From Candidatus Heimdallarchaeota archaeon (lineage in GTDB: Archaea > Asgardarchaeota > Heimdallarchaeia > JABLTI01): a DNA stretch of 64,000 nucleotides. Under the pieces are notes generated by a model. It was not told the origin of the DNA and made no database searches. It worked only from the letters and a program-made list of their open reading frames with translations. The position numbers were made by a program, and so were the translations under genes. The stretch spans positions 32,001-96,000 of the forward strand of contig JABCTZ010000033.1 in the NCBI GenBank assembly GCA_018238155.1. Direction: 5' to 3'. Each line of letters begins with the position of its first letter. The first letter of the stretch is position 1. This document shows, in pieces, positions 1 to 4,920 of this stretch.

Positions 1-646
1 GTTCCATGAAAATAAAAAGCAAGGTATTTAGTGCCAATGATATTACACTAAAGTTAATGAACAAAGTTCCTCTTCTTGCAACAGGATCAGAAATATCCTT
101 TCTAAGGATAAAAAGACTGAAAATCATTCTTACAAGCCCAAGAACAAACAATGGAACAAATAATGCAAGTAACAAAATATAGGAAGGTGCTATAATATAA
201 ATATTTGTCCCAGCAAGAAAGAATTCTACAGTTGCCGGAAATTTCATAGTACCACCTAATATAATTGTAAACATAGTCGTAGTGATTACAGCTGTAGATT
301 CCGCAAATAAGACAGCTGCAATTGATCGTACTAGTTCATTATCACGTAAAATATGTCTTGTCGAAAAATAATAGAAATAAATTATGCTTAATGAAATAAA
401 ATTAATATAGAATCCTTGTAAAATACCTATAGCAACTGTATTTGAAGGACTAAATCCACCAATCCAATAACTAACAGAATTGAATATTTCACCGAAAGCA
501 ATCATTCCAAAAGCAACCATCATAAATATCGAGCCCATAGTTCTCTTTTTGAAAAACGTTCCAGTCATAATAGATGAAAAAATCAATGCGAAAATAGATA
601 TTATTACAGATGTAGTTAAAAAGAATATTGTCATCGAATTTACCAT
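1..646 (-). CDS. Multi-pass membrane protein (at least 6 TM, possibly 7TM), truncated by the window edge; not in the ORF track
   Basis: Hand translation from ATG at 646 (MVNSMTIFFLTTSVIISIFALIFSSIMTGTFFKKRTMGSIFMMVAFGMIAFGEIFNSV...) is open to position 1, has six hydrophobic segments and starts 8 nt after the GTPase stop. Confidence 0.85.
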   Translation of the reverse strand, partial: MVNSMTIFFLTTSVIISIFALIFSSIMTGTFFKKRTMGSIFMMVAFGMIAFGEIFNSVSYWIGGFSPSNTVAIGILQGFYINFISLSIIYFYYFSTRHILRDNELVRSIAAVLFAESTAVITTTMFTIILGGTMKFPATVEFFLAGTNIYIIAPSYILLLALFVPLFVLGLVRMIFSLFILRKDISDPVARRGTLFINFSVISLALNTLLFIFME

Positions 647-654
647 GTTATCAA

Positions 655-1188
655 TCACTCTCCAAGCATTTGTAAGAACCATGTAATTGATTCTACAACT
701 CCTTCACCAGTTTTTGCTGATGTATCAAAAACAGCCCATGTGTGAGAAATTTCATCCTCTAATAATCCAAAATCACGTGTAAACTGTATTCGCTCCATGT
801 GATCAGGTAAATCTGTTTTATTTAACAATATTAAAACAGGAATTTCATTATCAATTTGGCTCCTTAAGATGTCAAGAAAGATTCTTTTTGTTTCTTCAAA
901 TCTAAGGTAATCTGTACTATCAACAACATAGATAAGAGCATTAGATTTCTCGTTTATATCAGACCAAATAGGACGGAAATCTTCTTGCCCACCCATATCA
1001 AAAATATGCAAGTCCAGTTTAGGAAAACTAATCGATTTCCTATTGATTCCCATTGTGGGTGTTGTTTCTCTGAATTCTCCATGTACCAAATAATTAACAA
1101 AAGTTGTTTTACCTGCTTTGTCAAGCCCACAAATTGTTAAATTTACCGGTTTCGATTTCTTTTGAAATAGCTTAAGTATAAAAGACAT
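655..1188 (-). CDS. Arf/Sar-like small GTPase
   Basis: G1 GLDKAGKTT, G2 PTMG, G3 DMGGQ, G4 NKTD, G5 TSAK; amphipathic N-terminus MSFILKLF with no Gly2. Confidence 0.95.
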   Translation of the reverse strand: MSFILKLFQKKSKPVNLTICGLDKAGKTTFVNYLVHGEFRETTPTMGINRKSISFPKLDLHIFDMGGQEDFRPIWSDINEKSNALIYVVDSTDYLRFEETKRIFLDILRSQIDNEIPVLILLNKTDLPDHMERIQFTRDFGLLEDEISHTWAVFDTSAKTGEGVVESITWFLQMLGE

Positions 1189-1208
1189 GATAAATTACCA
1201 CAGTAAAT

Positions 1209-1709
1209 CTATTTCCATAATTCATCTTTTAATGAATCAACAAATTTCTCGCCTCTTTTTTTCTGTTTCTTATCTTTATCTTGAAAATCAAATTCCAAAG
1301 TTACTACTGAACTTATTTTGATCTTAATTTTGCCTTTTACTAAGCCTTCATACATACTTGGTAAAATCTTTGAAAAAGTTTCTGTGTTTCCAAGATTATT
1401 TTTCTTAATTTCAGCAACAGTGAATGAAAAGAATTTTCGCACACTATTACGATCATAAGTAGAATTTTCAAATATTGCTACTAATGAGGCAATATTTTTT
1501 CTATCTTTTCCTGGAATGGAAAAGATATAACTCTCAAATTGACAATCTTGTACAGTGCTAGAAGTGAAATCACCATCTTTTGCACTCATTGGCATACTTT
1601 TTATTACTAATTCATTTAGCAAAGAATCTGGCAAAGCATTAGGATAAACATTCACTAATTCCAAACCAGTTTTTCCCATTTGTGTCAAACAAACGCCTAT
1701 TGGTTTCAT
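1209..1709 (-). CDS. uDENN/longin-like protein (Asgard type)
   Basis: N-terminal strand-G-x-strand-YP pattern (MGKTGLELVNVYP), helix ending KSMP, then YIFSIP...RKNIASLVAIF; 20 nt upstream of the GTPase. Confidence 0.55.
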   Translation of the reverse strand: MKPIGVCLTQMGKTGLELVNVYPNALPDSLLNELVIKSMPMSAKDGDFTSSTVQDCQFESYIFSIPGKDRKNIASLVAIFENSTYDRNSVRKFFSFTVAEIKKNNLGNTETFSKILPSMYEGLVKGKIKIKISSVVTLEFDFQDKDKKQKKRGEKFVDSLKDELWK

Positions 1710-2083
1710 TCATAATACACCCTAAGAATAGATAGTAATTTCTTCTTAATGTCAAATTCTTTTTTTGATTATAAACTAAACGGTTAACGCAAAAATGAGT
1801 AATCTAATTATATGTGTAACTAAATAACGATTCACATAAATTTAAGGATAACTTTAGATTATTATTAGCAATCTTATCTATTAAAAAATCTTTTTTGATT
1901 ACAAATTATACCTCTTTGTTGAACAAAGCTATAAAAAATGGCTTGTTTTGATTTTTCAATTATCAATTGCTCTAAAGAATACTATAGTTCTGCTTCTCTC
2001 GGTTTACACTAGAAAAAGCTAAATTGAATAACTAAACTATTCAAATGTTGAAGCAGCTAAAAAAAAATAAAAAAAATGAAAAA

Positions 2084-3370
2084 TTATGATGTTTTTATTA
2101 CATGAGCATCAAGGTCTTTCATAAGGAATGCCAATATAGTTGCAGTAGCAAAAAGGACAGTCATAATTATAAAATTGATGTAAATGAAATTTGCATTTAG
2201 AGCTTCTGTTAACATTATACAACCGAGCAAAACTATTCCGCTAACTTGTCCTATCCACATCATTAAACCATTCGATGTTTCCTCGGGTAGTGGATGAGTC
2301 ATTTCCGCAGCAAAAGTTAATCCAACGGGCAGTAGAGAAATAAGGAAGAAACCTGAGAAAAATGAAGTAATGTATCTTGAAACATCAATATTGATAAAGT
2401 AGAATAATGGTAGAAGAATTGTTCCAGCACCCATAGCAATTATAATGAATAGTCTTCTTTTGCGGAAGTGATCAGATAAAGCTGAAATAACTATAGCGCC
2501 TATTATACCTCCACCTACTATCAGACTACCAATAATTCCAGGTCGTGGATCATTAATCGGGTAACTAAATATTACATCAATAACAGCTGATATTGCGTTA
2601 AATGATCCGAAGCCTAACAGGAAGATGACAAATAGTAGACTGAAATCTCTTTTCTTAAACATTGATTTGGTCCCTTTAATTGCCAAAGTTTTACTTCTTT
2701 CACTGTATTCATTTGGAGGTGTAGGCGGTTTATCACGTACAAAAATCAAATATAAAATCATTGAAATAAATGCTACAATTCCAAAACTCCAAGTTACCCA
2801 ACTGATTGCTAAATCTGCACCAATTTTTTGCACTAATAATGGCGGAACTAGAAAAGCTATCAGCACACCAAGAAGCATAGACATTGTTCCCAAACCTGAA
2901 GCTAATGTTTTCTCTTTTTCTGGGAACCAAGCAGATGCAAGTTTTGTAAATGAATTCAAAACAAAAGGCTGACCTATTGCAGTTAAGATTTGGAAAATTA
3001 TAAGCAGAGTATAACTTTTGGTTATTATTGCGATTACTCTCAAAAATCCAAAAACACCTGTTAGAATAACACCAACACCAGTGCCCCATTTTAAACCAAA
3101 CTTATCAATTACCCAACAAGCGATAAAATTGACAGGGACATAAGCAATCATGAAGACTAATGCGAGAACTAAAATTGCTATCTCGGATACACCAAAAAAA
3201 GCAGCCGTTTCATCAACAATGACTCCATATGTAACCCAAATGATTTGGGTCATTGCTCCAGCAAACATAAACAAAATAAGTACTAACCAACGATACTTAT
3301 AACTTTTAAAATCTGATTCATTTGTTCTATTATCTATAATATCACTATCAATATTTTGAGCCAATAACAT
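2084..3370 (-). CDS. MFS transporter, SLC49/FLVCR-like
   Basis: About 12 TM; YKYRWLVL start, IDKFGLK and SDHFRKRR MFS loops, GQPFVLNSFTKLASAWFPEKEKTLA. Confidence 0.85.
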   Translation of the reverse strand: MLLAQNIDSDIIDNRTNESDFKSYKYRWLVLILFMFAGAMTQIIWVTYGVIVDETAAFFGVSEIAILVLALVFMIAYVPVNFIACWVIDKFGLKWGTGVGVILTGVFGFLRVIAIITKSYTLLIIFQILTAIGQPFVLNSFTKLASAWFPEKEKTLASGLGTMSMLLGVLIAFLVPPLLVQKIGADLAISWVTWSFGIVAFISMILYLIFVRDKPPTPPNEYSERSKTLAIKGTKSMFKKRDFSLLFVIFLLGFGSFNAISAVIDVIFSYPINDPRPGIIGSLIVGGGIIGAIVISALSDHFRKRRLFIIIAMGAGTILLPLFYFINIDVSRYITSFFSGFFLISLLPVGLTFAAEMTHPLPEETSNGLMMWIGQVSGIVLLGCIMLTEALNANFIYINFIIMTVLFATATILAFLMKDLDAHVIKTS

Positions 3371-3579: not shown

Positions 3580-4920
3580 ATGAAAAAATTATACATTATT
3601 TTGATTGTTATAGGTTCAATAGTTGCTATTGCATTACCATCGATCTTCTTAGGTGTCTATTTCTATTCACAAAACAAATTAAACAATACTGAAGTCACCA
3701 TAGAAACTTTCGTTATAAATGATTTAACGGATGGTAGCCTTGCAGGGACAGTTAATTTCACTATTAGTGAACCAACACAGGTAGATGCTACTTTTACTAT
3801 AATTACACTTAACGTTAGCTATAACGAACAGCATTTAGGCGATGGAATAGTTTTAACTCCGTCCTTTTCAACAAAAGAAGCAAACCATTCAGCAGATTTC
3901 ACTCTAACAATAACGGATCAACCAGCTTTTGCAGATTTTATCGACGATTTCTCTAATATGACATTATTAACTGTCGATATCGATGTTGTGATTGAATTCA
4001 CTGATGCATTAGCAGCTTTAGGACAAAAAACAATTTCAAAGTCACTTGAAATGAACGGTCTTGGTGCCCTTGATTTCAGTTTACAATCTTTCGAGTTAAC
4101 AAATGTTGTAGAGGAAAGTCTCTTTCTTGAAGTAACTGCGGAAATCTATAACCCAAGTCCTGTTGAAGTTGAAATTTCTTCACTATATTCAGATATAAAA
4201 ACACTAAATTTGACTCACATTGGAAATATTACTAAAAATAACTTCCAAATAAAAACTGGAATCAATATTCTCCAATTTAACACTTGGTTAGATGGTCCTA
4301 AAAACGAGTTGTCAGATTTAATTAGCACATATATCAATTCACTTAACACTACTTTATGGCTTAATTACACAATTACAATTGATGAATTAGATAATTTAGA
4401 GATTAACAAAGATTACTTTATGGTTGAATTTGAAGGAGCACAAACAGATCTTATTTCGATTGAAGTTGAAATGATTTCTTTATCTCTCGGTATTTCTTTA
4501 CCTCTTGTTGTTAGTTATCAAGTAGATACTACCGTTACTATAACCAATCCGATGGATTTTGAAATAAACTTAACAGCTTTCTATGGCAATCTTACTTATA
4601 ATGATGCAGATGGTGCAAGCTTTTCGATTCCGATTCCACCTACAAACTGGAATTATGGACCTGATACTATGATACCAATAACTCCATTAGATTTTAATTG
4701 GACTTCTGCACCGATAGAACTCGACCCATTAGGATTCAAAGAAGAAACTGTTGTATATACAGGTAGTGATATCGAACAAGCCATACGTTTCAATGATGAA
4801 TATTTCCTTAAGAATCAATTATACGTAGATATCATCTTTGGACACCTCTATATCCAGATTGGAGACTTTGAAATCGATTTATTAATATCCATTTATGATA
4901 TTTATGTACCAAATAACTAG
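3580..4920 (+). CDS. N-terminally anchored protein with about three LEA-2/WHy-like beta domains
   Basis: N-terminal TM; repeated (I/V)xNP/EP-x-x-(V/F)-x-hydrophobic motifs (ISEPTQVDATF, IYNPSPVEVEI, ITNPMDFEINL). Confidence 0.6.
   Translation: MKKLYIILIVIGSIVAIALPSIFLGVYFYSQNKLNNTEVTIETFVINDLTDGSLAGTVNFTISEPTQVDATFTIITLNVSYNEQHLGDGIVLTPSFSTKEANHSADFTLTITDQPAFADFIDDFSNMTLLTVDIDVVIEFTDALAALGQKTISKSLEMNGLGALDFSLQSFELTNVVEESLFLEVTAEIYNPSPVEVEISSLYSDIKTLNLTHIGNITKNNFQIKTGINILQFNTWLDGPKNELSDLISTYINSLNTTLWLNYTITIDELDNLEINKDYFMVEFEGAQTDLISIEVEMISLSLGISLPLVVSYQVDTTVTITNPMDFEINLTAFYGNLTYNDADGASFSIPIPPTNWNYGPDTMIPITPLDFNWTSAPIELDPLGFKEETVVYTGSDIEQAIRFNDEYFLKNQLYVDIIFGHLYIQIGDFEIDLLISIYDIYVPNN

Follow-up and report, generated by a model that had tools for sequence, protein, structure and literature searches.

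A unit of three genes was analyzed at one end of a DNA stretch from Candidatus Heimdallarchaeota archaeon (contig JABCTZ010000033.1, designated here as C29). The stretch, C29:32001-96000, is 64,000 nucleotides (nt) long and is referred to as the window. Three open reading frames (ORFs), designated as A, B, and C, were recognized from the ORF listing and the sequence within window positions 1-1709, all on the minus strand. They encode a longin protein, an Arf-family small GTPase, and a seven-transmembrane (7TM) protein, respectively (Table 1). The C gene continues beyond the left window edge, and its remainder was read from the same contig.

The alignment of 26 relatives places the true start of C at the second ATG (window position 646), which gives a full length of 299 amino acids (aa); counted from the upstream ATG, the protein would have 311 aa. 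A Shine-Dalgarno-like GGAGAG is located inside the last codons of B, 12-17 nt upstream of this start, and a T-rich run is present approximately 25 nt after the C stop codon. A look-up of public sequencing runs covering window positions 1-2100 gave no entries. An earlier note on this DNA described three co-directional genes with gaps of 20 and 8 nt, and both gaps are confirmed with the C start at 646. In the paralogues, the A-B spacer is 4-33 nt and the B-C distance is -1 to 8 nt. The same note credited the membrane gene with at least six transmembrane (TM) segments; when the gene is completed from the contig, seven TM helices are predicted.

Table 1. Features of the A-B-C unit. Positions are those of the window except where a contig (C number) or a locus (L number) is named.
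Feature	Position	Strand	Description	Basis
Gene C, first 215 of 299 codons	1..646	-	7TM membrane protein; the other 254 nt lie past the left window edge (L001 1247-2146)	
R-H-I-L-x-D motif of C	341..358	-	Cytoplasmic motif at the end of TM3 (residues 97-102)	
B-C spacer	647..654	-	8 nt after the B stop codon	
Gene B	655..1188	-	177 aa, Arf-family small GTPase	Pfam Arf
Switch II DxGGQ of B	985..999	-	DMGGQ, residues 64-68; catalytic Gln68	
P-loop of B	1105..1128	-	GLDKAGKT, residues 21-28	
A-B spacer	1189..1208	-	20 nt, A stop codon to B start codon	
Gene A	1209..1709	-	166 aa, NPRL2-type longin protein, candidate GTPase regulator (GTPase-activating protein, GAP)	ORF, AlphaFold2 (AF2) model, structure searches
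Arg70 codon of A	1500..1502	-	Candidate arginine finger, beta4-beta5 loop	
Presumed promoter region	1710..2083	-	AT-rich intergenic stretch upstream of A, between the unit and a transporter gene of the major facilitator superfamily (MFS)	Sequence only
A-C doublets without a GTPase gene between	C21:5502-6928 (L046 2503-3929); loci L013, L014, L016, L041, L043, L045, L047			

Conserved order and block inheritance of the three genes

The synteny set consisted of 38 loci with strong matches to the C profile, from approximately 20 genomes; in the C search, five candidates were scored per genome. A is located directly upstream of C, with or without B in between, in all 38 loci unless the contig ends. 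B lies between the two in 29 loci, and the other nine are A-C doublets. This A-(B)-C arrangement is far beyond chance, and the conservation of gene order, which the earlier note had named as a check on the operon, is thus established.

The genome of the window contains six trios (on contigs C29, C39, C10, C41, C15, and C20) and one doublet (on contig C21). The same orthogroups emerge whether the tree is built from A, B, or C, and the distance matrices are correlated with r of 0.66-0.87, a value reached in none of 2000 permutations. The rows of these trees are kin, and therefore the matrix correlation shows shared history, not co-evolution. It indicates that duplication and inheritance involved the whole A-B-C unit as one block. 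In the A-C doublets, Arg70 of A and the cytoplasmic motifs of C (both described below) are still present. Since these residues are retained without B, they point to a possible direct functional tie between A and C.

Strong matches to the C profile were found only from the genus and family of the window and from one further family of the same class. Weaker relatives of C, 250 aa in length and carrying a Y-L-G-x-x-x-P-x-W-L-K/R-R-R signature, are distributed across the phylum. The labels on named relatives of A and C read Heimdallarchaeota, Gerdarchaeota, Asgard group, and, in a few cases, Thorarchaeota.

Several copies in related genomes look decayed. At L009 2717-2938, a 73-aa GTPase remnant is left; at L015 1501-2310, the 7TM gene is split by stop codons; and the trio at L038 2612-4390 has shortened genes and an in-frame TGA.

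The longin protein and the Arf-family GTPase

The AF2 model of A was built with an alignment of 31 relatives and has a predicted local distance difference test score (pLDDT) of 82.7. It shows the order b-b-a-b-b-b-a-a plus a hairpin, which constitutes a longin domain; the acidic tail behind this domain is disordered. In the Foldseek search with this model, NPRL2, NPRL3, and yeast Npr2 rank highest, with e-values down to 7e-8. VIA-align superposes model residues 1-143 on NPRL2 residues 5-160/166 with Z of 13.5-16.2 over 142-148 residues and a root-mean-square deviation of 2.7-3.6 Å. Other longins score lower (FLCN/FNIP, Z 10.5-11.1; DENND, 9.9-10.3; AP sigma, approximately 9.5). In ESM Atlas, eukaryotic NPR2 (PF06218) clusters are matched with a TM-score of 0.70. 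A belongs to no Pfam or NCBIfam family, its family members giving scattered sub-threshold matches only, and the A profile finds no meaningful match among PDB sequences; the similarity between A and NPRL2 is therefore structural only. As judged from the model, A is a single-domain longin, nearest in fold to NPRL2, the GAP subunit of GATOR1.

The earlier note called A uDENN-like and held that its reading would fall if the region 1209-1709 did not adopt a longin fold. The AF2 model and the Foldseek and VIA matches bear out the longin fold. The uDENN label was rejected: A has neither a DENN core nor a dDENN and no Pfam DENN match, and DENND1 (Z 9.9, rank 16) is far behind NPRL2 (Z 16.2). The note also regarded DENN/longin domains as regulators of small GTPases, often guanine nucleotide exchange factors (GEFs). 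The NPRL2 family, to which A is closest, consists of GAPs, not GEFs.

The arginine finger of NPRL2, FLCN, and SMCR8 sits in the beta4-beta5 loop. In the model of A, Arg70 lies between the strands 56-65 and 72-80. It is invariant in the 31 family members, in all 24 trio copies, and in all eight doublet copies.

The C-terminus of A (residues 145-166) includes a conserved D-D/E-L-W-K/R motif after a disordered linker, a possible docking motif. Two further proteins contain A-like domains. The stand-alone longin at C22:9351-9923 (L060 1426-1998, minus strand; e-value approximately 1e-31 to the A profile) has no GTPase or 7TM neighbour, a residue other than Arg at the Arg70 position, and a long acidic C-terminal tail. 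The 259-aa protein at C15:198759-199538 (L061 1234-2013, minus strand) carries a diverged A-like longin domain (e-value approximately 1e-12) and an additional C-terminal domain of approximately 100 aa without a Pfam family.

B is an Arf-like GTPase, as the earlier note had proposed. It matches Pfam Arf (PF00025) over residues 4-174 of 177 with 143.9 bits (cut-off 22.3) and an e-value of 4.5e-42. Its closest natural relative of solved structure is the Asgard "GTP-binding protein" 8OUN (e-value 2.5e-29), followed by Arl3 and Arf1. Besides the P-loop and switch II, B carries NKTD and TSAK as its NKxD and SAK motifs. All four motifs are conserved across 24 copies, in which the residues D64, G67, Q68, K124, and D126 are invariant. 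B lacks Gly2 and hence the site for myristoylation, and residues 2-12 do not exceed shuffled sequences in helical hydrophobic moment. Its matches to neighbouring Pfam families are weaker, with 48.4 bits for G-alpha (cut-off 48.8) and 40.6 bits for SRPRB. B also aligns to the Ras-like domain of miniGq.

B is a member of the Asgard ArfR/AArf GTPases (8OUN/8OUM; bioRxiv 10.1101/2024.02.28.582541; PMC11914678). It has the same N-terminal start as these proteins, a conserved M-S-F-L-x-x-L-F followed by basic residues, which aligns with the N-terminus of 8OUN. Unlike them, B has a longin and a 7TM protein as fixed partners; operons, gene neighbourhoods, and transmembrane partners are unmentioned for Asgard Arfs in these two reports.

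An orphan Arf-family GTPase is encoded at C13:86298-86855 (L063 399-956, minus strand; Pfam Arf, 138.8 bits). With 228 bits on the profile of the trio GTPases, this protein comes nearest to them after the trio copies themselves, and it has no adjoining A or C. It could be the partner of an A-C doublet.

An Arf-type GTPase next to a longin may also be explained by membrane trafficking or remodelling. In that case, B would be recruited to membranes in the manner of Arf and Sar1, A would be a GEF, adaptor, or effector longin (of the DENN, Mon1-Ccz1, AP sigma, or SRX type), and C would be an anchor or cargo, not a sensor. Longins are typical GEF platforms and adaptor subunits, and AP sigma, SRX, and DENND match A with Z of 8-10. 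Many copies of C end in a conserved short tail motif that could be a sorting signal, and, when placed in heterologous cells, Asgard Arf proteins are able to associate with membranes (PMC11914678). However, A is clearly nearer to NPRL2 (Z 16) than to these adaptor and GEF longins, and it keeps the invariant Arg, which adaptor longins do not need. With six to seven diverged copies in a genome and an outer face of C that varies among them, the unit resembles a family of sensors rather than one trafficking machine. In the inspected loci, no coat, SNARE, or ESCRT genes were found alongside the unit, which argues against a trafficking machinery inherited with it. A role in trafficking is considered unlikely.

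The seven-transmembrane protein

In the AF2 model of C (pLDDT 83.7), seven TM helices are seen; TM4 and TM5 are linked by a beta-hairpin, and TM7 runs on into a long helix. Lys and Arg are clustered in the tail and in the loops that follow TM1, TM3, and TM5 (approximately 10 inside versus one outside in the loops), which corresponds to an N-out/C-in topology. C matches no Pfam or NCBIfam family, and none of 26 members matches a Pfam family of G protein-coupled receptors (GPCRs) even at e-values up to 10.

Conservation among 24 paralogues and orthologues is concentrated on the cytoplasmic side. Of the top 30 conserved columns, 29 are located in the cytoplasmic helix halves, the cytoplasmic loops, or the helix after TM7, and the mean conservation falls from 0.54 on the cytoplasmic side to 0.40 on the outer one (Mann-Whitney p 8e-11). 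TM1 is followed by a conserved K-K/R-T-x-G and TM3 by Y-x-F-x-x-R-H-I-L-x-D, while R-K-R-G precedes TM6 and Y-L-G-W-x-x-P-x-W comes after TM7; the motifs after TM3 and TM7 do not correspond to DRY or NPxxY. R97 and D102 in the motif after TM3 are invariant, and this region is second in conservation after the TM1-TM2 loop. Such a pattern fits one shared cytoplasmic partner and varied outer faces.

The C-terminus of C differs between subfamilies. In the long-tailed subfamily, the last approximately 25 residues contain a conserved V/I-x-E-V/I-S-D/E-P/x after a disordered linker, a possible docking motif. The proteins of a second subfamily end shortly after W-F-E-x-Q-Y-K.

The fold of C was compared with known structures in several ways. 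Foldseek with the C model gives class A GPCRs with e-values of approximately 1e-3 and TM-scores of 0.47-0.5. The exhaustive VIA search gives GPCRs with Z 15.8 and the KR2 rhodopsin with Z 15.1, the stated helical-bundle background being approximately 13-14. In ESM Atlas, bacterial HisKA_7TM sensors with fused GGDEF, EAL, or kinase domains are matched with a TM-score of 0.64 over approximately 246 residues, and a GPCR cluster with 0.58. HisKA_7TM clusters are also the named clusters nearest to C in language-model features (score 0.87, a weak lead only). Taken together, the predicted fold of C matches HisKA_7TM sensors, GPCRs, and rhodopsins about equally. C is, on the basis of the model, a stand-alone 7TM protein with a receptor-like shape and no demonstrated membership of a known family. 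The rhodopsin reading was rejected, as the only conserved basic residue in TM7 (position 233), where rhodopsins need a retinal-binding Lys, is mostly Arg with few Lys and no match to Bac_rhodopsin was found.

HisKA_7TM (PF16927) is the best-fitting named fold in ESM Atlas. The alignment by hhalign between C and 14 true Asgard HisKA_7TM domains has a collinear helix order TM2-TM6 over 162 columns, with a probability of 38.6% and an e-value of 3e-4; a second alignment has a probability of only 0.4%. The members of the C family do not match PF16927 in Pfam, and no C gene was matched with this profile in a six-frame search of the genome at e-values up to 10. The sole weak match in that search was a 560-aa multi-pass protein unrelated to C. 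The HisKA_7TM sensors also differ in that their kinase, GGDEF, or EAL outputs are fused, whereas C has no fused output, and its presumed output would be the separate proteins A and B.

The shape of C and the kinship of its neighbour B suggest another explanation, in which ligand-bound C acts directly as the exchange factor for B, and A acts as a GAP in the manner of the regulators of G-protein signalling. In the strong form of this explanation, the unit would be homologous to the ancestor of eukaryotic 7TM/G-alpha signalling. C resembles the eukaryotic GPCRs in its N-out/C-in 7TM topology, the outer beta-hairpin in the TM4-TM5 loop, and the basic helix after TM7, and GPCR chains head its structure searches. 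B belongs to the Arf/G-alpha branch, and its sub-threshold G-alpha match fits the accepted kinship of the two; a separate GAP-like regulator is present, and the tightest coupling between genes of the unit is that of B with C. On the other hand, the GPCR matches of C are indistinguishable from those of microbial rhodopsins and are near the helical background, HisKA_7TM fits C better in ESM Atlas, and neither membership of a GPCR family nor the class A motifs were found. B has no helical domain and no beta-gamma partners, and its coupling with C is putative. A quarter of the loci lack B yet keep A and C, which fits a tie between A and C better than one between C and B. This mechanism is thus quite improbable.

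A wider proposal sees in the operon a surviving relative of what eukaryotes built into both 7TM/G-alpha signalling and the lysosomal longin-GAP/small-GTPase nutrient sensors, with C as a ligand-gated receptor directly setting the nucleotide state of the GTPase and A as a dedicated off-switch. It is likewise given little credence. If it were true, receptor-coupled G-protein signalling would predate eukaryotes. The earlier note described the locus as a receptor-GTPase-regulator module resembling a primitive GPCR-like or membrane-trafficking switch. The conserved unit and the receptor-like topology of C agree with this description, but the matches of C do not single out GPCRs among 7TM folds.

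C might also be a transporter, a channel, or an enzyme which A and B regulate, or which they serve as dedicated insertion or biogenesis factors, in parallel to SR-beta and the SRX domain of SR-alpha. The SR-beta/SRX complex (1NRJ) is among the weak structural matches of A, B has the above-mentioned match to SRPRB, and a conserved basic residue (K or R at position 233) is present in the outer half of TM7. However, no transporter or enzyme signature or family match was found for C; by the earlier note, a transporter or enzyme would have refuted its reading. The copies have little of their TM core in common, and no polar network is seen to be conserved in it. The relatives of C comprise 91 representatives among 1.84 billion clustered proteins, and all are short stand-alone 7TM proteins. 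It is very unlikely that C belongs to these functional classes.

Other multi-pass proteins were observed besides the C family. At C1:35807-37880 (L062 308-2381, minus strand), a 151-aa protein without a Pfam family is followed by two tandem 7TM proteins of approximately 265 aa, one of which is a distant relative of C (e-value 1e-5). Three 7TM proteins of 359-382 aa, at C3:42964-44112, C7:377135-378262, and C19:17014-18093 (L065-L067), resemble C in the spacing of their 7TM N-terminal half and carry a soluble extension of approximately 150 aa at the C-terminus. They match no Pfam family and not the A profile, and hhalign finds no relation to C.

A possible membrane-anchored switch and its known counterparts

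The reading tentatively favoured here treats A, B, and C as a single functional unit that works as a small-GTPase switch anchored at the membrane. The 7TM protein would be the sensor or anchor, and the longin would regulate the Arf GTPase, probably as a GAP. This reading is based on the tight gaps, the conserved order, the copy number, and the block inheritance of the genes; on the NPRL2-like fold and the invariant Arg of A; on the intact G motifs and the catalytic Gln of B; and on the cytoplasm-biased conservation of C together with the doublets that keep Arg70 and the C motifs. C would be a sensor and/or a membrane dock, its outer half varying among copies and its cytoplasmic loops and post-TM7 helix remaining constant. 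B would cycle between GDP and GTP at the membrane that holds C. A would regulate B, most likely as its GAP by inserting Arg70. A probably contacts, is held by, or is controlled through the conserved cytoplasmic face of C, and the state of C would then set how long B stays bound to GTP. Who binds whom, the action of A as a GAP rather than a GEF, the direction of regulation, the sensing and ligand of C, and the downstream output are all what we infer from these features. In the prediction of a complex of C, B, and A, a control containing another protein in place of the GTPase reached nearly the same score; the score is unspecific and is evidence neither way.

Several points weigh against the roles assigned to A and C. 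A correspondence of Arg70 with Arg78 of NPRL2 is compatible with the aligned ranges (model 1-143, NPRL2 5-160) and to that extent only putative. Eukaryotic longin GAPs operate as heterodimers of two different longin subunits, one of them non-catalytic, unlike the unit in each of the 38 loci, which has a single longin gene. Longin domains also serve more often as GEF platforms or adaptors. Cytoplasm-biased conservation, as seen in C, is common among membrane proteins and is no proof of sensing, and no fused or identifiable ligand-binding domain was found in C. Finally, the "GP motif" in the loop before, or at the start of, the second strand is regarded as the hallmark of GAP longins (PMC12290439); in A, this position is G15-L16, and the Gly is nearly invariant, but every copy has Leu or Ile where the Pro would be.

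In the eukaryotic lysosome, the longin GAPs GATOR1 and folliculin act on Rag GTPases and are themselves controlled by membrane sensors such as LYCHOS/GPR155 and SLC38A9. This nutrient-sensing circuit is the closest working analogy to the A-B-C unit. Like GATOR1 (NPRL2-NPRL3-DEPDC5, acting on RagA/B), FLCN-FNIP, and C9orf72-SMCR8, A has an NPRL2-type longin including the extra hairpin and an invariant Arg in the beta4-beta5 loop, and it is paired with a small GTPase bearing the catalytic Gln and with a multi-pass membrane protein. There are also clear differences. A is one domain of 166 aa without the C-terminal NPRL2 domain, with neither a second longin in the operon nor DEPDC5, and its GP motif reads G-L. 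B is of the Arf type, not the Rag type. C is a plain 7TM protein without transporter or DEP domains. Unlike the GATOR1 genes, those of the unit form a prokaryotic operon, and the GAP activity of A is putative. The Arf type of B has a counterpart among the clients of eukaryotic longin GAPs, as C9orf72-SMCR8 is a GAP for Arf GTPases (PMC12290439).

The three parts are of known kinds (an Arf GTPase, an NPRL2-type longin, and a 7TM protein), but their fixed combination in three genes appears undescribed. No description of a longin-Arf-7TM operon was found in open-access papers or on bioRxiv. To our knowledge, the native partners of Asgard Arf GTPases are not known. As a rule, the GTPase genes of the cultured Lokiarchaeon do not share operons with longin or roadblock genes, and partners are hard to match (PMC10933270). 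A resembles the Heimdall stand-alone longins described as "FLCN/SMCR8-type" or "NPRL2-like", including the conserved Arg (PMC12290439; bioRxiv 10.1101/2020.10.19.343400). Heimdall longins with an arginine finger and a GP motif have been reported together with the question of which GTPase they serve (PMC12290439). The client GTPase of the Asgard GAP-like longins was left open, and fusions to two-component domains were described, not a 7TM-Arf operon (PMC12290439; bioRxiv 10.1101/2020.10.19.343400).

The operon in principle answers both which partners Asgard Arfs have and which GTPase the Heimdall GAP-like longins serve. Since one longin, one Arf GTPase, and one membrane protein are co-inherited and co-duplicated, the pairing can be tested with three small proteins. 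If A is a GAP and C is a sensor, the archaeal relatives of eukaryotes already coupled small-GTPase switching to a sensor in the membrane. This logic is used in eukaryotic lysosomal nutrient sensing and, more distantly, in GPCR signalling.

The neighbouring genes are unrelated to the A-B-C unit. Upstream of A, an MFS transporter is encoded at window positions 2084-3370 on the minus strand (MFS_1, e-value 1.5e-37), followed at 3580-4920 on the plus strand by a 446-aa protein that matches DUF3712 and has a single TM segment at its N-terminus. At L001 282-1040, a DNA methylase (N6_N4_Mtase) is encoded on the minus strand.

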